From NCBI GenBank assembly GCA_951406725.2, contig OX597818.1:125178001-125242000 (forward strand): a stretch of DNA of 64,000 nucleotides, written 5' to 3'. Positions 1 through 64,000 of this stretch are shown here, in pieces; the stretch's first letter is position 1, and each line of letters begins with the position of its first letter. Origin of the DNA: Octopus vulgaris. Lineage: Eukaryota. The notes under the pieces are model-generated. The model was not told the DNA's origin and searched no databases. It worked only from the letters and a program-made list of their open reading frames with translations. The position numbers and the translations under genes are program-made.

Positions 1-174
1 TCCGATGGCCGGATAACTGAAGAGATGGCGGCGTGGATTTCCACCCCGACATCCGGAACACGGAGTTTTATCATGGCTACCGAATAATTTTCACATATTA
101 CATGTACAGATAAATTCCTCTATTTACATAATATCGAGGTCTCTTTCATTCTTTTGTTGTCTTCCCATTTTTAT

Positions 175-5194: not shown

Positions 5195-5617
5195 CAATTA
5201 GTCAATATAGGGTAGCAAAAAATTCAATAGAAATTTATCGCCACCAGCGGTCTAGTGAGAAAGAGAAAATAGTCATAGACTATATATATAAATTCAACAT
5301 CAATTGAGGAATGGCCTTAATAGGCCATTCGACCCACTAGAAAGAGCAGCCAGGACTCAAACCGCCAAGTAGTAGTAATTCAGAAATTAAAGGAAAATTT
5401 AAAAACATTTACCCTAATTCATCTTTAGACAATGCATTGTTTCGGTGTTTTTAATGGCAAACCAGCTTAATTAAATTAAATTAAGTCAATTGTTGTTGAA
5501 TTTATATATATATGTATATATAGTCAATGATAATAAGGGTAAAATTAATTAATTAGTAATTAATAATTTTACCAACCAGTGTTGAGTATGTAAAAAGACC
5601 ATTTACGGTATATTTAA

Positions 5618-5945
5618 AACATTACTTTATATAATTAGGGTTCAACAAAAAAATTTTACTTTACCACACACCGAACTTTTAGAAATAGCAGCCAAAGAAT
5701 TTAGCTATTTCCTCTAATATAAGAAGAGTCTCCCAGACAGCGTATACTCAACAACAATTCACGTAGGCATATGCCTAAATTATTTGGCTGCTATATGCCT
5801 ACGTGAATTGTTTTTGAGTATACATTGTCTGGGAGACTCTTCTTATATTAGAGGAAATAGCTAAATTCTTTGGCTGCTATTTCTAAAAGTTCAGTGTGTG
5901 GTAAAGGAAAATTTTTTTGCTGAACCCTTATTATATAAAGTAATG

Positions 5946-5947
<2 letters not shown>
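5618..5947. repeat. Long inverted repeat (155-bp arms, 20-bp spacer) abutting (TA)n
   Basis: 5618-5772 is the reverse complement of 5793-5947 with a few mismatches. Confidence 0.95.
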
Positions 5948-6011
<64 letters not shown>

Positions 6012-7145: not shown

Positions 7146-7221
7146 GTCTCTGATGACGGAATACCCGATATCCTGGCATACTCGCCTATCACTTGGGATA
7201 TCCCAGAAACAGCTGTAAGAC
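7146..7221 (+). ncRNA. Type I hammerhead ribozyme motif (Penelope-like)
   Basis: GTCT-CTGATGA-[helix II, imperfect]-GAAAC-AGCT-GTA-AGAC; helix I GTCT/AGAC; palindromic helix III ACAGCTGT. Confidence 0.65.
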
Positions 7222-7326
7222 CTCAACTAATTTAAGAATAACAATGTATATGTCTTGAGATGCTTTTTATGCCTTGGCGTTTGTTGTCCACTTTCACACA
7301 CACACACGCGCCTGTCGTATATACAT

Positions 7327-8183: not shown

Positions 8184-8385
8184 AGTTAATCCAAACATGA
8201 AAACATAAAGATAAAACACAATAACGCGAGGACGTGGAACAAGTATAGTGTTATTGGACGCTCAGGAAAGGAAAGAAAGAAGGAGGACGTAACGTTTCGA
8301 GCGGAGCTCTTCGTCAGAAACATAGGAAAAGGTTAGGAAGGGAAGACGGATGAAAAAATCGCCAAAGATACACACACGGTCACAT
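8184..8385 (-). mobile_element. Penelope-like terminal module P1 with hammerhead motif (8289-8321)
   Basis: Reverse complement reads GTTT-CTGACGA-AGAGCTCCGCTC-GAAAC-GTT and ends GGATTAAC(TA)n, as at 38370-38583. Confidence 0.7.
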
Positions 8386-9480: not shown

Positions 9481-9484
<4 letters not shown>

Positions 9485-10745
9485 CACCATACAGCACAAC
9501 GGTTCAACATCAGCCGCCTTCCAAGTAAAAAACGGGGTAAAGCAAGGCTGTGTCCTCGCTCCTACATTGTTTGGCATCTTCTTCTCACTCTTGCTGTCAC
9601 ATGCCTTTCAGACATCAGATGATGGAGTGTTTCTGCACAGTAGAAGTGACGGGAAACTGTTCAATCTCTCGCGCCTGCGTGCCAAGACCAAAATCAGAAA
9701 CGTCCTGATCAAGGAGATGTTATTTGCTGATGATGCCGCTCTGGTAACACACACAGAAGAAGCCCTCCAAAGGCTCATTAACTGTTTTGAGCAAGCATGT
9801 AACGGCTTTGGCTTAGCTATCAGCCTTAAGAAGACCAACATCATGGGCCAGGCTACATCGGACATCCCAAACATACATATTGGAGACCACAGATTACAAG
9901 AGGTGGAGCAGTTTACCTATCTGGGCTCTACCGTCACCTACAGCCTATCCCTTGACGCTGAGCTCAATATACGCATTGGCAAGGCAGCTGCTGCGATGGC
10001 CCAACTCTCCAAACGGGCTTGGGACAACAATAAGCTGACCAAGGCCACAAAAATGAAGATCTACCAGGCATGTGTACTCAGCACTCTACTGTATGGAAGC
10101 GAGACCTGGACGCTATACACACGCCAAGAGCGTCGCCTAAACATCTTTCACCTGCGCTGCCTCCGAAAAATCCTCCACATCAAATGGCAGAATCATATCC
10201 CCAACAAAGATGTCCTCAGGCAAGCAGGAATACCAAGCATGTTTGCACTCCTCACACAAAGACGTATGAGATGGCTTGGGCATGTTAGCCGTATGAAAGA
10301 TGGCAGAATCCCCAAGGACATACTCTACGGAGAGCTTGCTAGGGGTACTAGGTCTGTGGGTAGACCGATCTTACGTTACAAGGATGTTTGCAAAAGGGAT
10401 ATGAAGGCCTGCAACATCAACATTAGCGGTTGGGAGGCAGTCGCCGGCAACCGTGGAGAATGGCGACGTACAGTAAAAGAGGGTATACAGAGGAGTGACA
10501 GAAAGAGAGAGGAGAAATGGAAAGAAAGGAAGAGACATAAACAAGAGACAAAAGCACTACAACCAGCCAGGAACAGTCTTCGCTACATTTGCAGTACCTG
10601 CCAGAGGGAGTGTTTGTCCAGGATAGGACTACACAGCCACAGCAAGAAATGTAACAGGAAATAAAATATAACAGCCGGACTAGACCTAGAAAAAAAAAAA
10701 AAAAAATGCGCAACTCCATTGTCTCCCGAGACAGAAAGGATGCCA

Positions 10746-10750
<5 letters not shown>
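9481..10750 (+). mobile_element. 5'-truncated RTE-clade LINE inserted in (TA)n
   Basis: Sharp GC-richer block between two long (TA)n tracts; RT ORF followed by a short 3' UTR ending GACAGAAAGGATGCCAAACAA. Confidence 0.93.
9483..10664 (+). CDS. RTE LINE reverse transcriptase C-terminal half (5'-truncated, open frame)
   Basis: GVKQGCVLAPTLF, LFADDAAL, FTYLGS, LLYGSETW, RMRWLGHV and C-terminal CxxC..H..C motifs; no stop from 9483 to 10664. Confidence 0.9.
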
Positions 10751-17546: not shown

Positions 17547-17879
17547 ATATATATATATATATATCCATCCATCTATCTATCTGTCTGTATGTCTGTCTAC
17601 CTCTCTGTCAATGCATACACACACACACACACATATATACACACAAGAGTTACGGAATGGAGTAGGAAAAATCAGGTCTACATGTTTCATAGCGAGTAGA
17701 ACCTCAGAAGTTGTAAAACCCAAGTGAGGTGTATACCGCCGGCTGCTCTTCAGACTAAGGCTGCCTTGATTTGATTAAAAGTTACATTGTCGCAAGGAGG
17801 AATATGTTGACGCAAAGAAGAATCAGTTAGATTGCTCGAAGCTAACCTTCTTCCTACGACTCGATCCCTAGATCTTACA

Positions 17880-18067
17880 TTTGTATGTGAATCGTTGGCG
17901 ATTTTCTTCTTCAGTCTTCATTTCTATTAGACTTTCCTCTGTTTCCGAAGAAGAGCGTCTGCTCGAAACGTTAAACCATCTTTCTTTGCTTCACTGAGCG
18001 TCTGCTAATACTTTACATGTACTACGTCCTCGCGTTGTTGTTTTTTGTGCTTGTTCTTTTTGGAATT

Positions 18068-18070
<3 letters not shown>
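17880..18070 (+). mobile_element. Penelope-like terminal module P1, hammerhead-like motif 17941-17976
   Basis: GTTT-CCGAAGA-AGAGCGTCTGCTC-GAAAC-GTT-AAAC; ends in (TA)n. Confidence 0.6.
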
Positions 18071-21138: not shown

Positions 21139-21200
<62 letters not shown>

Positions 21201-21287
21201 TCCTGCGTCCATATTTCCTGAGCGCCTATTAATAATAATACTGTAATTGTTCCACTGTTGTTGTTTTTTTGTTTTCCCGTTTGGATT

Positions 21288-21326
<39 letters not shown>

Positions 21327-21872: not shown

Positions 21873-22030
21873 AATATATAATTGAGTAGTTGAATGAATT
21901 ATCTTATTATGGATAATTCGGTTAACCGATACCTGGGTAGCAAATTCACGTCAGAAAAACACGGTTGAAGCTACATGCCTAGGGCAGAGATCACGTGGAA
22001 ATTTGTGTGTTTTTTTTTAAATACAAATAA

Positions 22031-22396
22031 ATGAAAGAATGGAGTTGAACGACGAATTAACAAAATTCCTTTATTTTATTTTCGACATATGTTTCGAAGG
22101 CTGCATATTCCTAATTTCGAAGGAATAAGGGGTGCATTATGCCACCTTCTCATCAGGAATAGTAAGGAACTTATGTCAGCATCAAGATGCACAAAAATTA
22201 TCGCTATGGGCACCGTGTGGGCAGGCATCTAAACATGTTTGTGCATCTTGATGCTGACATAAGTTCCTTACTTTTCCTGATGAGAAGGCGGCATAATGCA
22301 CCCCTTATTCCTTCGAAATTAGGAATATGCAGCCTTCGAAACATATGTCGAAAATAAAATAAAGGAATTTTGTTAATTCGTCGTTCAACTCCATTC

Positions 22397-22402
<6 letters not shown>
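22031..22402. repeat. Long inverted repeat (165-bp arms, 42-bp spacer, 2 mismatches) abutting (TA)n
   Basis: 22031-22195 is the reverse complement of 22238-22402. Confidence 0.97.
22272..22354 (+). ncRNA. Type I hammerhead ribozyme motif (mirror copy on the - strand at ~22079-22161)
   Basis: TTTTC-CTGATGA-GAAGGC...GCCTTC-GAAAC-ATAT-GTC-GAAAA: full catalytic core, helices I and II paired, GUC cleavage triplet, palindromic helix III. Confidence 0.82.
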
Positions 22403-22450
<48 letters not shown>

Positions 22451-25653: not shown

Positions 25654-26030
25654 TTTGAGTCTGTGTTTGTCCCACCACCATCGCTTGATAGTCGATGTTG
25701 GTGTGTTTACGTCCCCGTAATATAGTGGTTCGGCAAAAGATACCGATAGAAAAAGTACTAGGCTTACAAAGAACAAGTCCTAGGGTCGTTTTGTTCGACT
25801 AAAGGGTGTGCTTCGAAAGTTTTAAAAATACAACTAAAATATTGCTTACGGCCATATCAGGTTGAAAGCACCAGTTCTCGTCCGATCACCGAAGTTAAGC
25901 AACGTGGAGCCTAGTTAGTACTTAGATGGGTGACCACTTGGGAAACCTAGGTGCTGTAAGCGTCACACATTTTGTAAAGGCAGTGCTCCAGCATGGCCGC
26001 TGTCAAATGACTGAAACAAGTAAAAGTAAA
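25393..26030 (+). mobile_element. SINE family A interrupted by a 5S rDNA insert
   Basis: Family A sequence runs to ...TTCGACTAAAGG, is interrupted for 169 bp, and resumes TAAAGGCAGTGCTCCAGCATGG. Confidence 0.88.
25844..25963 (+). rRNA. 5S rRNA: 5S rRNA gene copy (probably a dispersed pseudogene)
   Basis: GCTTACGGCCATA...TCTCGTCCGATCACCGAAGTTAAGCAACG...TTAGTACTTAGATGGGTGACC...GGTGCTGTAAGC; ends pair (GCTTACGGC/GCTGTAAGC); box A and box C present; T4 at 25970-25973. Confidence 0.92.
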
Positions 26031-38131: not shown

Positions 38132-38169
<38 letters not shown>

Positions 38170-38369
38170 CAATACTAAGCCCAACCACACACATAGATTA
38201 ACAACTACAACCACACACACACGTGCTATCATTGCACACATATACACATACACACACACGCATACGCAGACCTGCGCCCACGCACATATCCACACTTACA
38301 CACGCTTACCTCCTCTTGCACTCTCCTGTCTTTGAAAGAACTTTTTCTTAGCCATTCTCATCCGGTCAT

Positions 38370-38578
38370 TCAAAATGTGACCGCGCGTGTACCGTTGGCG
38401 ATTTTTTTCCTCCGTCTTCCCTTCTTTGGATCTTTCCTTTTCCTAGGTTTCTGACGAAGAGCTCCGCTCGAAACGTTAAACCATCCTTCTTTCCTTCTTT
38501 CCTGAGCGTCCAATAATACTATACTTGTTCCACGTCCTCGCGTTGGTGTGTTTTCTCTTTGTGTTTTCATGTTTGGAT

Positions 38579-38583
<5 letters not shown>
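38370..38583 (+). mobile_element. Penelope-like terminal module P1
   Basis: Homologous to 8184-8385, 17880-18070 and 40615-40795; ends GGATTAAC(TA)n. Confidence 0.72.
38446..38482 (+). ncRNA. Minimal type I hammerhead ribozyme motif
   Basis: GGTTT-CTGACGA-A-GAGC-TCC-GCTC-GAAAC-GTT-AAACC; helix I GGTTT/AAACC; loop-less palindromic helix III (ACGT). Confidence 0.75.
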
Positions 38584-38640
<57 letters not shown>

Positions 38641-38645
<5 letters not shown>

Positions 38646-38976
38646 ATAGTTATCGCCATACTAATATGGCATTCTTATAAAAATAAGAAAAAGCTGTCCG
38701 CTTATTAGCTCCATGAGGCCATCGCCTTAAGTTAGCTATTTGATACACAAACTGTATCCATATAACCTTCGAACAAGGGAGGTCAGTCGCTCCACACTAC
38801 TTGACCGGCAGCTAAGTAGTGTGGAGCGACTGACCTCCCTTGTTCGAAGGTTATATGGATACAGTTTGTGTATCAAATAGCTAACTTAAGGCGATGGCCT
38901 CATGGAGCTAATAAGCGGACAGTTTTTTTCTTATTTTTATAAGAATGCCATATTAGTATGGCGATAACTATTATTT
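38641..38976. repeat. Long inverted repeat (~162-bp arms, 11-bp spacer) abutting (TA)n
   Basis: 38641-38802 is the reverse complement of 38814-38976, differing only in an A/T run. Confidence 0.97.
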
Positions 38977-39075: not shown

Positions 39076-39187
<112 letters not shown>

Positions 39188-39929
39188 CTAATGACGGGTA
39201 CTAGAGAAAGCACCAGTATGCTAAAATAGCAGAGACGACTTAAAATCACGCATTTTCTCTAATACACAAAGGTAAAATCGGGAGAATGGGCAAAATAACC
39301 CTAAGGCCCCATACAAATGACGAAAGAAAATCGAAAAATTGAAAAGCCAGACACACCCGTATTGCAGCAATTTCAAACTTTGTGAAAACATCACTTGGTC
39401 ATCCCCAGCGAGTCTTACATAGAGCTTTCCTGTCTCAACCACTGTGTGTGATGACCGTTTTTAATACCACAGCAAATTTAAAAAGGTGATCGAAGTGAAT
39501 AAAAATCATAAAAAAATATATCAGGACATTGTTTACAACAATATCAGTGGCTTAGCATGCGTAAAAAACCATAGAGGTAAATAATTATTAATTAATAATG
39601 AAAGTTGCTAGAGATAGCACCAGCATGCTAAAATAACTGTCAGAAACGACTTAAAACCACAAATGTTCACTAATACACAAAGCTGAAGACGGGGGAATGG
39701 GCAATAACTCTAAGACCCCAATGGGCAAAACACTAGAAAATCTATGCAGAAATCCATCACACATACAATAAATGATAAAATTTAGCAGGACTTAATGGTT
39801 GCACGTTTTTTAAAACTGGACACAAATTTTATCAGTTATAACAGTATTTCCATGATGCTCTGTTACTCACTGTAAAGCATGCGATTAACACGCCAATATT
39901 ACCATACTTTTATTTTAATATTGTGACCG

Positions 39930-40029: not shown

Positions 40030-40220
40030 GATTTAAATTTAAGCGTTCACTTCCGAACTAACTAACTCACTCTGTGAGAGCCTCAGTTCAAATCGCACGT
40101 GCCTTGAATGGGCTGGAGTATTTCTATTTTGGATGTATTTGGGGTACTTAGTTGTGCCCATGACTTAGTATTTGCTTCTTCCATGGGTATGAGTATCTCA
40201 TTTATTTCTTTTGCCACATG

Positions 40221-40279
40221 TATCACTGACGAAGAGAGGGCTCTTAGTAGCTAACTCTGAAATCGGTCCGATATGGTAA
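40221..40279 (+). ncRNA. Type I hammerhead ribozyme motif
   Basis: TATCA-CTGACGA-AGAG...CTCT-GAAA-TCGGTCCG-ATA-TGGTA. Confidence 0.6.
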
Positions 40280-40421
40280 TAATGGAATTTTTTAGAAATT
40301 TCTGTCGGCCTTTTTTTGAGTAGCGTGCGTATTGCGAAAAAATTATATGGTTAATGGACAATATGTCCAATTTTTCGGCATATTTGGCATTAGAAATTTT
40401 TTCCTTTGCCCTCATTTATGA

Positions 40422-40457
<36 letters not shown>

Positions 40458-40614: not shown

Positions 40615-40795
40615 ATTTTTTTTTCTCTGTCTTCCCTTCTCTGGATCTTTCCTTTTCCTATGTTTCCGACGAAGAGCTCCGCTCGAAACGTTAAACTCTC
40701 CTTCTTTCCTTCTTTCCTGAGCGTCCAATAATACTATATTTGTTCCACGTCCTCGCGTTGTTGTGTTTTTTTGTGCTTTCTTGTTTGGATTAACT
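40615..40795 (+). mobile_element. Penelope-like terminal module P1, hammerhead-like motif 40662-40696
   Basis: GTTT-CCGACGA-AGAGCTCCGCTC-GAAAC-GTT-AAAC; ends GGATTAAC(TA)n. Confidence 0.7.
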
Positions 40796-49671: not shown

Positions 49672-50267
49672 GGTCCATAGCTGCAATGCCTTTGAGCATA
49701 AGTCTGCTCGATAAGGATTGATAACACACCAATGTCACACTCTAGCAAGTTATCTGAAAAATTAGTGTGAATGATGAGTATTATTTGAATGAGCGAATGA
49801 ACTTATTCGCGATATGGGAATATAGGTCATGAAGTGAATGAATGCTTTTGATGTTCGGAACAACCCGAGATTCATATGAAGTTCATTGATTGTCTCCTCG
49901 TCTTTGGTAATGGGAGTTAACTGAAATATATCTGTGGTTTCCTTAATGTCTCTTACGTGTCTGATAATTTCTATTAGAACAATTATATTGTAAATAATTT
50001 CATTGTGTGTGTGTTTGATGGGTTTTTTTTCAAAGGAATCTAATGCTCTTAGCTTAGTTTTTCCTTGGGGCGGGCCAGATTGGAGCAATCTCAAGATTAA
50101 TCAGCCGAAATTGCGAGGATGATCCGGTTCTTGACTGAAGATAAAAGGCTTCGAATGACCCGTCCGTGTTTTTTTGTGTATCGTCTATCTGGATGTTTTG
50201 TTGTCCCTTTTTGTATCACGTAGTTGTCCAGATGTTTTGCATTCTTGTCCCATTTTGTATTTTATTA

Positions 50268-50330
<63 letters not shown>

Positions 50331-53089: not shown

Positions 53090-53415
53090 TGCCTTGCGAC
53101 TTTTGCTTCCGTTGTTTACGGGCTGAGTTCGAATCCTGCCGTGGATGACTTGCTCTTCCCCACTTTCGTGGTCGATATTTCAGGTCTTATGCTTATATTG
53201 GTTTCAAATTTTGGCACAAGGCCAAGAATTTCGGGGATGGAGGTAAGTCGATTACATCCTCTCCAGTACTCAATCGGTACTTATATTATCGGCTTATATA
53301 TATATATATATATATATAACGGGAAGGTTTACGAAAATAAACAAAAGACGAATGCAGGTGGAGTACAAACAAACAAATGTATTAGTATGGCGCTCAGGAA
53401 TAGAAATAGAACAAG

Positions 53416-53453
53416 TCTTTTACGTTTCGAGCCTACGCTCTTCAACAGAAAGA
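53416..53453 (-). ncRNA. Minimal hammerhead-like motif in a P1-related module (~53318-53530)
   Basis: Reverse complement TCTTT-CTGTTGA-AGAGCGTAGGCTC-GAAAC-GTA-AAAGA; one core substitution. Confidence 0.55.
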
Positions 53454-54370
53454 TACTCAGAAAAAAAACAAGGAGAGAAACAAGGAGAGAAAAAAATGCG
53501 TGTAGGAGCTAACGATCTATCATGGCGTTCTGACTTCGGCCGGTTAAAAGTTTCTCTTTGCAAACAGCTTGGTTCCTTAGGAAATGCCTTCGATTATAAC
53601 CTTAATCGACCAATACTTTGGACATAAAATCTCAATATCAGGAAATACATATGTGCATGCACCCGCGCGCGCGTGTGTCATGTCTGCGTGCGTGCATGTG
53701 CGTGTGTGCGTGCGTAACGATGTTACATGCTGTATCGAGCAGTCGTTGTGCATGCTTTCTAGTTTTGCTCCAAAGGGACATAACTCAATACGCAGCCTAT
53801 TCTTTACCCAATCCTTAAATATATTCGGTTTAAGGAGTACGAGAATATGTTGGATTATGGCGGTCAGGACAGGTAAGATGGCAGAGGCATCTGTGGTGTG
53901 GGAGAGCACAAGAGGAAAGATAGCAGAAGGTAGAGTATCCAAGGTAGTGGACAAAATGCTTTATAATCTCTCTTTTACTCTCTTTTATTAGTTTCAGTCA
54001 TTTGACTGCGGCCATGCTGGAGCACCGTTTTATTTTATTGTATTTTTTTACTGGTCTCATTCATTCAAACTAAGCAAGATCGAAGCTCCCTGTCTTCACC
54101 CTACCAAAACACGCACGATCGATAAAACAAGTATCTTCCACGTACTGAAGCCAGTTTTATTGTCTCTGCCATCCTCCAAAATATGTCTATTTAGTTATGG
54201 CACTTTTTTGCATCTCTGAGTCCAAGTCTTGCTGAAGTTATCTTAACTATTAATCCTTCCTTCCGCCCTTGTTAAAATAAAATGCCAGTCAAATACTAGA
54301 GCCGATTTAATCAACAAGTCCCTTTCCTCAAATTTCTTGTAGTTATGTTGGAATTATTATTCCAGCTCGA

Positions 54371-56144: not shown

Positions 56145-57398
56145 CGTCCTATTGTCACAGCTTACTTCTATTGGCGGCGCCAAATTCGCAAACTGAGCGC
56201 TTCTTGGTCGCCATCTTCTAAATTCACGTCTTTGTCGACGTTAATGGCAGCTTCAAGCCCGAATCTGCATACAACAAGCTCCGCCTTCATTTTAGCCACG
56301 ACAGCAACGCCAAGACGAAACAAGGATACGGAGACGAGCAAACAAAAGAGAAAACCTCAGGAAATAGCGATGACGCTGCAACAGCAGAAACTTCACCGTC
56401 AGCACCAGCGTCCCCGTCATCAGCTTCATCCACATCAGCGTCCTCCTCCGCCCCCGCCACCACCACCACCACCTCCTCCTCATCCCCATCATGATTATTA
56501 TCTCTACGAGCAACAACCTCACATCGATCATACTCAGTATCATTACAGTTATCAACAAGAACCACCGCAACAGCAACAGTTTCCTCTACAAGCACTACCT
56601 ACCCCACGCCCACCGTCCTCAACTCCCCCTCCGCCACCGTCCCCTCTTCCATCTCCACCGCCAAGTCCACCACCGTCATCAACACCTTCGCTTTTATCGT
56701 CACCTCCGCCGCTGCCGCCGTTCGACAAGGGCGACTGTACCAGCAGAACAGCGTCATCAATGGTGACCCATAATTTCAATAGCAACACCAATGTTTCTTC
56801 AGAAAGAACTCCTCAGAACAGTAACGATTGGTATCAGAAACTGACAAACACCAGCTTGACGCTTGGAGAACGAAACGAAGAATCCGTTTCATTTTCAGAT
56901 CCGGATTTTACATTCAAGCGCTCTTCGACCCGCTGCTATTTTCAGCTTTGTTGGTTACTGTACGAAACCTTGTTTGTTTCGGCCATATCGGTGGGTTCAA
57001 TCTATCTCATCGAACTTCTACCGCAGCTTAGACAGCAACCAGAACGCCGCACGGTGTCATTTGCCGATATCGGTGTGAATTGCATCAATTCTTTATTGAT
57101 ATTCTCCGAAGTCTTCATATGTGCTTACCCAGTTCGCCTTTTGCATGTAATTTATCCGATAATTTATGCCATTTCTTATATTGTATTTAGTTTAGCTTAT
57201 TGGTCTTATGATACTGAAGCAAACGTCATCTATCCCAGCATTCTAAATTGGAACAATCCCGGCTTGACCGCAGCTCAAATTGTCTTGCTTGTGTTCGTTG
57301 TTATTCCGCTGTTGAATGTAGTGCATTTCGGTCTTTATCACTTGCGGTTGTTCATTTACAGACAGATATATATGGAAGATTACTTATTTATCTTATAA
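56145..57398 (+). CDS. rost: Rolling stone-like multi-pass membrane protein, terminal exon (probable acceptor at 56005; 5' part disrupted)
   Basis: C-terminus FQLCWLLYET...GVNCINSLLIFSEVFICAYPVRLLHVIYPIIYAISYIVFSLAYW...IYPSILNWNNPG resembles the rolling stone family (recalled); TTTCAG|WRWPGYVFVLY upstream; Pro/Gln/His-rich loop. Confidence 0.72.
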   Translation, partial: RPIVTAYFYWRRQIRKLSASWSPSSKFTSLSTLMAASSPNLHTTSSAFILATTATPRRNKDTETSKQKRKPQEIAMTLQQQKLHRQHQRPRHQLHPHQRPPPPPPPPPPPPPHPHHDYYLYEQQPHIDHTQYHYSYQQEPPQQQQFPLQALPTPRPPSSTPPPPPSPLPSPPPSPPPSSTPSLLSSPPPLPPFDKGDCTSRTASSMVTHNFNSNTNVSSERTPQNSNDWYQKLTNTSLTLGERNEESVSFSDPDFTFKRSSTRCYFQLCWLLYETLFVSAISVGSIYLIELLPQLRQQPERRTVSFADIGVNCINSLLIFSEVFICAYPVRLLHVIYPIIYAISYIVFSLAYWSYDTEANVIYPSILNWNNPGLTAAQIVLLVFVVIPLLNVVHFGLYHLRLFIYRQIYMEDYLFIL

Positions 57399-63050: not shown

Positions 63051-64000
63051 GTATATATATATATATATATATACACATACACACACACATACACTTGCAT
63101 ACTTGGATGTGATGTCATGGACGGCATTTTCTGCTAATACTATGTATTTACGTATATGTATAAGTATGTATGAACGTGTGTATGTAAGTATACATATATG
63201 TATGCATGTAGATATGTACACACACGCACTCACGTGCGCGCACGCACGCACAGAGGCACATACACAGGGCACTTTATGTGTGAATCTCGAAGCGGGTAGC
63301 ATTAGTGTGTTGGCTCCAGGATCATGAGATCGTGCGTTCAATTCCTGGACTGGATAGCGGGTAGTTTCTTCATCGAGGAAGGCATTTCATTTGACGTTTC
63401 TCCAATCCACTTAGCGGAAATGGGTTTCAGTCTAATGCTGGTACAGGCCCTATCCCTGCAGCTGCCGCTACCTCAAAGGTAGATGACCAAAAAGGTGTCC
63501 GTTTCTCATGATCATATTGACACGTAATGCAATTAGCGAAATCATATTCACGTGGTAGTAATGACGCTGGATTTGTTGTATACGAAACGCCGGCGTGGTT
63601 GTGTGGTAAGAAGCTTGGTTCCCACCAACATGGTTCCGAGCTCAGTTTCAGTGTGTGGTACCTTGTGCTACTGTCTTCTGCTATACCCTCTGGCCAAACA
63701 AAGTCTTGTGATGAATGGCTTTAGTAGACCGAAACTAATATTATATATATATATATATATGTAAAAAAAATACAAACTGGGACAAGAACGCAAAACATTT
63801 AGAAGACGATACAAAAAACACGGACGGGACATACGAAGCCTTCGATCTTCAGTCAAGAACGGGATCATCCTCGCAATTTCGGCTGATTAATCTTGAGAGT
63901 GCTCCGATCTGGCCAGCCCCAAAGGAAAATCTAAGTCAAGCGCATTAGATTCCTTGGAAGAAAGCCTCGAATGTATACAAAACAAGGACGGAATATATAT

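Follow-up and report, generated by a model that had tools for sequence, protein, structure and literature searches.

A ~208-nt repeat inside TA microsatellites of Octopus vulgaris carries a minimal hammerhead motif and is probably the terminal segment of a Penelope-like retrotransposon

The repeat at positions 38375..38582 (+) of a 64-kb stretch of Octopus vulgaris DNA (hereafter, the window) raises the question of what kind of mobile element brings a minimal hammerhead motif into TA microsatellites, and of what the ribozyme contributes to it. The window is microsatellite-rich animal DNA, and the repeat is a ~208-nt unit that lies inside such microsatellites and carries the motif. The unit is T-rich, lacks a tRNA-like head and runs from a dominant 5′ edge to a fixed 3′ end. 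Its target tract, (TA)29 at 38583..38640, is common to the unit and to a palindrome that stands behind it.

Five motif-bearing copies occur at the places where a sequence-only reading of this DNA had put them. An exact pattern consisting of helix II plus GAAACGT gives five matches in the window, against 0.00 expected from 100 shuffles. Apart from the copy at 38370, these are a 5′-shortened close copy of 93% identity at 40617..40794 (+), which has a CCGA core and (TA)n on both sides; a close copy of the short form at 8185..8385 (−), also with (TA)n on both sides, in which helix I is broken; a copy of a diverged subfamily (77%) at 17878..18070 (+), with a CCGA core and the loop GTCT; and a distant relative at 53319..53520 (−), in which the hammerhead is 74% identical and the flanks 56-57%, helix I reads TCTTT/AAAGA, and core position 6 is a U (A6U). 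The earlier tally overlooked a sixth copy at 21199-21292 (+), which was recovered in the window by both blastn (E 2e-6) and nhmmer (E 1.8e-7). This copy consists of the last ~95 nt only, without the ribozyme, and has a (TA)n tract on either side. Two of the six copies (40617, 21199) are shortened, and none of the six is paired in tandem or inverted with another family copy in the window. The 40617 and 53318 copies are flanked by fragments of other repeats, and the 5′ extensions of three copies bear no significant likeness to each other (p 0.11-0.78). At the 3′ end, (TA)n is found in all six copies, where 0.9% of random strand positions lie within 4 nt before a (TA)n tract. The proposed junction directly into (TA)n is therefore borne out for the whole set; the endings that had been given for it, GGATTAAC or GGAATTTAC, do not hold for the 53318 relative, which ends CTTCCCGT.

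The motif at 38446..38482 (+) is a minimal hammerhead of type I, made up of helix I, CUGACGA, an extra A, GAGC/GCUC, GAAA and a palindromic ACGU. Its general order is helix I, CYGANGA, extra A, GAGC-loop-GCUC, GAAA, CG, UH and helix I again, and the predicted cut falls after U38477, which leaves ~103 nt to the dominant 5′ edge and ~105 nt to the 3′ end. The distance from the core to (TA)n is 126-133 nt, i.e., the hammerhead sits near the 3′ end. In all five copies, the core elements CUGANGA, GAAA and UH follow one another in type I order (with U4C in two copies and A6U in one), an extra nucleotide lies between positions 9 and 10.1, and a G10.1-C11.1 pair is present. Several features read from the letters alone were confirmed: helix II is an invariant GAGC/GCTC in the five copies, with loops TCC, GTCT and GTAG; helix III is loop-less, with a palindromic ACGT in 5/5 copies; and CCGA replaces CTGA in two copies, 17880 and 40615. 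The full type I descriptor is passed by four of the five copies, versus 0.025 matches per shuffled window, and the fifth, the 8184 copy, fails owing to its broken helix I.

Helix I is 4-5 bp long in 4/5 copies. Across the four sequencing runs described below, position 38446 is a T in 99% of the depth; as G38446 is private to the 38370 copy, the family helix I is 4 bp and reaches 5 bp in the 38370 copy only. The pairing GGTTT/AAACC, which had been set against TCTTT/AAAGA as a covarying helix I, is accordingly found in the 38370 copy only, and helix I is broken in the 8184 copy. The covariation claimed for this helix fails among the five window copies (79/500 shuffles), where it depends on two cells, both from the 53318 copy, but it does hold across families (0/500 shuffles). 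The latter comparison used 12 representatives, namely three window copies and one from each of nine other loop-II families, and in it one pair takes four forms. Between subfamilies, the motif is conserved above its flanks (74% versus 56-57%; 87% versus 62-73%). Within the family, variable sites are no scarcer in the motif than in the flanks (among 40 of 53 variant rows), which gives no hint of added constraint in a family this young.

The family as a whole was viewed through contigs from 4 of 24 listed runs, aligned on 38169-38598 (25,903, 22,714, 6,562 and 8,583 aligned contigs per run). The summed depth of the unit exceeds the median for the longest pieces by a factor of 30,000-68,000, a value that is not a copy number because overlapping short contigs inflate it; it therefore permits only a rough reading, of roughly ten thousand or more copies. 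In these assembled contigs of four runs, which rather than the genome are the source of the 5′ edge, the depth on the 5′ side drops within ~30 nt by 16- to 43-fold when measured against the 38319 bin and by 100- to 191-fold against the 38349 bin, the latter underestimating the long form because the 38370 copy is diverged there. Alignments mostly begin near 38375 (the depth in run X1 is 69,000 at 38368 versus 2.4 million just inside), and the loose ends before 38368/38375 are (TA)n in all four runs. The ‘variable 5′ ends’ of the sequence-only reading are thus a property of some copies; family-wide, one edge near 38375 dominates. Run X4, which we guess to be RNA, has a profile that parallels those of the DNA runs and was therefore set aside as evidence on expression. 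No second 3′ end, such as the optional 30-40 bp tail of EN+ PLEs (Penelope-like elements) might produce, is seen among 24 of 951 loose-end rows.

Upstream of the edge, a minority ‘long form’ continues into a 5′ extension at 38274..38374 (+), which accounts for ~0.4-6% of the depth. Three of the listed contigs bridge this extension to the unit, and the long form reaches at least 38274; the 38370 copy is itself a long form, and the CA-rich stretch at 38169-38273 lies upstream of the extension. An internal (TA)n tract of a longer element was considered as the cause of the 5′ edge and rejected, since the upstream extension accounts for no more than 2-6% of the depth. The idea of an intron acceptor preceding helix I was also dropped, because its AG depends on G38446, which is private to the 38370 copy. 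An initiator-like hexamer at 38366-38371, noticed post hoc by comparison with the initiator consensus, is a hint only.

Near the 5′ edge, the depth reaches 36-51% of its value around 38514; together with the two shortened window copies, this indicates that truncated copies are common too. Such a gradient fits the share of truncated copies that would be left by plain dead tails, that is, by random 5′-truncated insertions of a full-length PLE (Penelope-like element) with variable 5′ ends. The shortened copies at 40617 and 21199 speak for the same explanation, as do the coral-type relatives discussed below, among whose listed matches 7/50 copies reach the ORF. However, random truncation is unfit as the cause of a depth step as sharp as the 16- to 43-fold or 100- to 191-fold drop, with (TA)n loose ends in 4/4 runs, and we regard dead tails as an unlikely account of the family.

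The CCGA (U4C) form is far from marginal, since it makes up 31, 33, 45 and 49% of the depth in the four runs and 29 of the 70 core-bearing loci elsewhere, among the matches listed. The change is reported to lower hammerhead activity, yet a viroid that carried it stayed infectious, as set out in the portion of PMC3088659 used here. An ‘inactive’ CCGA subfamily, as had been suggested, is therefore not established and finds no support in these shares; the CCGA copies form a large subfamily that is not necessarily dead.

How active the ribozyme might be was approached by folding. Minimum-energy folds of the monomer do not form the core and their z-scores are weak, and folding of the whole unit yields no stable structure (z −0.64 to 1.68). 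In Rfam, the 38370 copy has no hammerhead match, and a scan of the whole window shows no hammerhead among the best 150 of 339 rows. In the four copies whose helix I is intact, a double-hammerhead fold has computed energies of −8 to −15 kcal/mol, and the best cofold of the same copies is more stable by 9-14 kcal/mol. To call the motif active only as a dimer, as was proposed from its loop-less helix III, is thus too strong: the dimer fold is disfavoured by 9-14 kcal/mol, and a PLE hammerhead has been shown to cleave only together with its protein (PMC11167929, in the sections drawn on here). The disfavoured dimer fold fits both this protein-assisted cleavage in Anolis and the low activity that PLE minimal hammerheads show in vitro according to PMC4209133. 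No depth step is present at the predicted cut site 38477/38478 in the contigs of the four runs. The ribozyme would be a weak cutter, assisted by a dimer or a protein, and would not be needed by most insertions.

These results bear on a retrozyme-like cycle, in which a double hammerhead would cleave unit-(TA)n-unit transcripts of head-to-tail order and ligation would close the product into a circle primed at (UA)n, giving fixed ends flanked by (TA)n. Head-to-tail joints, with a short TA spacer between the units, do exist (7 of 12 rows listed, 22 in all), both ends of the unit are fixed, and animal retrozymes have been proposed to be PLE derivatives (bioRxiv 10.64898/2026.07.22.740005, as far as its consulted text goes). 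However, the joints have a depth of 33-48, which is the level of a single locus, versus millions for the unit, and tandem copies number 0/6 in the window. The cycle is also hard to reconcile with a hammerhead that is minimal rather than canonical, with a disfavoured dimer fold, and with a weakened U4C core on a third to half of the depth. We consider it decidedly improbable.

The same motif recurs outside the octopus. A broad pattern that fixed only helix II and the GAAACGT half matched at least 120 metagenome loci and 49 prokaryote-genome loci and had no matches in viral contigs, and a family-specific pattern had none in metagenome contigs. The first core half, which was not part of the search, is present in 67 of the 120 metagenome loci listed and in 3 of the 49 prokaryote-genome loci; the other 46 prokaryote-genome matches, in which it is missing, were taken as chance. 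Among the 70 loci listed that have it, this half reads CTGA in 37, CCGA in 29, TTGA in 2 and TCGA in 2. A helix I of at least 3 bp is found at 45/70 of these core-bearing loci versus 7/99 of the others, among the matches listed. The commonest family (within L001-L120) and the 38370 element have ribozymes that are identical over 27 nt except for loop II.

At several of these loci, which we call coral-type, the motif accompanies a PLE gene: in L009/L089, L025/L105 and L144, the stop codon of a PLE endonuclease frame on the sense strand precedes the motif by 105-107 nt. The L144 frame has a GIY-YIG Pfam match, a cysteine linker that by eye is of the Neptune/Nematis type, and 132 homologues, many with RVT_1, with coral names on four named rows of the 120 listed. 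The L144 contig, filed under a bacterial MAG, contains head-to-head coral-type PLE frames with the same hammerhead and is probably contamination from an animal host. Among the matches listed, 33 of the 50 distinct copies in the coral-type family end no more than 20 nt upstream of the motif, and 7 extend into the ORF; clustered 5′ ends are therefore not unique to the element in the octopus window. Two points speak against the link to the octopus element: the coral-type copies are not in (TA)n (1 of the 70 core-bearing loci is, again among the matches listed), and the coral-type family and the ~208-nt unit have only the ribozyme in common, their flanks being unrelated.

The link to Penelope minimal hammerheads that the sequence-only reading had drawn is upheld by the anatomy of the motif and by the near-identical motifs behind coral-type PLE endonuclease genes, and we hold a PLE origin of the unit with high confidence. 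Targeting of (TA)n is supported by 6/6 copies and by 5′ loose ends in 4/4 runs. It is not exclusive to PLEs: an RTE LINE also lies in (TA)n here, so the target is not diagnostic. A preference for (TA)n and inverted 5′-truncated pairs are traits that PMC8557442, in the parts consulted, describes for PLEs, and the window also holds other hammerhead-bearing ends and one head-to-head hammerhead pair at (TA)n. Taking the evidence as a whole, the best explanation, and in our judgment a probable one, is that the unit is the end segment, or pseudo-LTR, of a Penelope-like retrotransposon of the Neptune/Nematis type.

The coding part of such an element was sought around the copies. Neither a reverse transcriptase nor a GIY-YIG domain was found beside any window copy by Pfam on 21 flank translations, and a 120-protein PLE profile over six frames plus tblastn, run on the whole window, brought up no PLE sequence that belongs to this family. 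When the 127-aa frame upstream of 53318 was searched for homologues, no PLE sequence emerged either. There are three sense frames upstream of 17880; a phmmer search with one of them gave 9 matches, none of them a PLE; the five that were scanned are cadherin-repeat proteins, and the matches were rejected because all 9 show the same cadherin repeat. The absence of any PLE coding sequence beside the copies counts against the PLE reading, as does the lack of tandem or inverted pairs of the family within the window.

Given that the RTE LINE fragment of the window is likewise enclosed by two (TA)n tracts, the unit could instead be pictured as a SINE-like sequence that travels as a passenger with a (TA)n-inserting LINE, of the RTE or Dong/R4 type, and happens to contain a hammerhead. 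However, the unit lacks similarity to any LINE piece in the window, the window contains no tRNA gene, the unit has no Rfam match, and elsewhere the motif goes together with PLE genes; Pol III would also terminate at the T runs close to the 5′ end. We attach very little probability to such a passenger. Finally, a fortuitous resemblance to a hammerhead within a T-rich repeat, as might be suggested by the lack of an Rfam match, the minimum-energy folds without a core and the weak z-scores, is already refuted for the motif by the 0.025 descriptor matches per shuffled window, the cross-family covariation and the conservation of the motif above its flanks, which leaves it with a negligible probability.

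If the unit is the terminal segment of a PLE, it would likely be copied into (TA)n tracts by a PLE reverse transcriptase and GIY-YIG endonuclease. The endonuclease would nick (TA)n, and reverse transcription would begin inside the RNA, ~105 nt behind the ribozyme cut site, cross the uncut ribozyme and mostly halt at a single 5′ point, with shorter copies arising from early stops. The template may be the 5′ end of the full-length element RNA or the short copies’ own transcripts. Most plausibly, the single 5′ point would be the transcription start of the pseudo-LTR promoter, a reading suggested by the fact that PLE starts lie in the pLTR and that internal RT starts in Anolis are on unprocessed RNA; we give the equation of the 5′ edge with a transcription start slightly less than an even chance. 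More tentative still, and in our view rather to be doubted than believed, is that the ~208-nt unit is a self-propagating non-autonomous ‘PLE-SINE’, transcribed alone into an RNA that begins and ends with (UA)n and inserted in trans at tens of thousands of (TA)n sites, with the U4C lineage amplified as well as the intact one.

The window contains further features that end at or lie among TA tracts. A second hammerhead family at 40221-40278 (+) has a real helix III (4 bp, 3-nt loop) and a 5-bp helix I; its core lies 200 nt before (TA)14 at 40426, and it has no Rfam match (40150-40420). At 22001-22432, a head-to-head palindrome has 198-nt arms of 92% identity with one hammerhead per arm, the + arm matching Rfam Hammerhead_1 (E 1.8e-4) with its core 125 nt before (TA)24. 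This palindrome looks like an inverted 5′-truncated PLE pair, an arrangement that has been described for PLEs (PMC8557442, in part). The palindrome directly behind (TA)29, at 38640-38976 (337 nt, 97%), is extended by 58 nt on one of its arms. The window’s best match to the C-terminus of a PLE endonuclease, a non-significant one, comes from these arms (tblastn E 0.009, the best of 120 queries; profile E 0.2-0.4), and a search with 40 aa of this palindrome found nothing. A third large palindrome, at 5609-5956, ends at (TA)32 and includes a stretch that by eye resembles a degenerate hammerhead. Degenerate hammerhead-like motifs were also seen by eye at 7146-7250 (+) and 12-75 (+), 188 and 161 nt before (TA)n, and both fail the hammerhead descriptor.

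Other neighbours are of different kinds. A two-copy family at 49800-50270 (+) and 63761-64000 (−) has a microsatellite end and GAAA and CTGAAGA in permuted order; its upstream frame by eye resembles what we take to be a LINE C-terminal zinc-binding stretch. The T-rich element at 39186-39929 (−) ends at (TA)n, is interrupted by an N gap and has an internal direct repeat of ~130-145 nt (78-79%). The LINE fragment at 9483-10749 (+), presumably RTE-like, has a 393-aa open frame (RVT_1 E 1.8e-12) and is the one that lies between two long (TA)n tracts. A full-length 5S rRNA match of 107.7 bits at 25844-25962 (+) is present as a single copy in repeat-rich DNA, and 56760-57398 (+) is a likely host exon (Pfam Rost, rolling stone, E 1.5e-12).

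The kind of element is already known, as minimal hammerheads at PLE ends have been described across animals. Cervera and De la Pena (2014; PMC4209133) located minimal hammerheads (min-HHR) in the pseudo-LTRs of metazoan PLEs. In the account given in the consulted part of that paper, these agree with the octopus motif in being of type I, with a loop-less palindromic helix III, an extra nucleotide between 9 and 10.1 and a G10.1-C11.1 pair, and in having a helix I of 4-5 bp, mostly single dispersed motifs and several families per genome. On the same account, the octopus unit differs in its helix II of 4 bp, versus 7-8 bp in the Schistosoma families, and in its large U4C subfamily, its dominant fixed 5′ edge and (TA)n on both sides.

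The coral-type loci L008, L009, L025, L118 and L144 correspond here to Neptune/Nematis-type EN+ PLEs as covered in the excerpted text of Craig et al. (2021; PMC8557442). They resemble the octopus unit in a ribozyme near the 3′ end, in the occurrence of both CTGA and CCGA forms and in clustered 5′ ends; in contrast, they are often in inverted pairs, linked to an ORF and outside (TA)n, whereas the octopus unit has no linked ORF. In the Anolis Poseidon element PAc (Frangieh et al. 2024; PMC11167929), the ORF begins at stem II, and reverse transcription is initiated at +111-118 of an unprocessed RNA. Going by the portion of that study used here, PAc shares with the octopus unit an element end ~110-130 nt behind the ribozyme, an AT-rich target and insertion from uncut RNA; however, PAc is autonomous, with its ORF at stem II, where the octopus unit has no ATG.

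Non-LTR retrozymes, as presented in the consulted parts of PMC7229834 and bioRxiv 10.64898/2026.07.22.740005, are likewise short, non-coding, PLE-related, similar in size and equipped with a type I hammerhead. They form tandem arrays and have canonical hammerheads and circular RNAs, whereas the octopus unit is dispersed and minimal. Non-autonomous PLEs of Chlamys such as MRC1 are also short, non-coding and PLE-related, but most of the Chlamys elements are without a canonical hammerhead. In the Octopus vulgaris genome, PLEs are put at 6.83% in 190 families (PMC13282606, part of the supplement), and the word ‘ribozyme’ is absent from PMC13282606 and PMC8967140. We found no published description of the ~208-nt family, which may be listed in Repbase, in Dfam or in the supplements of PMC8557442, PMC4209133 or the bioRxiv study.

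Automated annotation could easily misfile the unit as an unclassified SINE. The only part that merits a second look is the fixed short form with its co-amplified U4C lineage. With its two co-amplified core variants, U4 and C4, this large fixed-end family would permit a test, on genome sequence alone, of whether ribozyme activity helps PLE mobilisation, hinders it or makes no difference. Were the ‘PLE-SINE’ reading true, the U4C lineage would be a natural experiment on the need for cutting by the PLE hammerhead.
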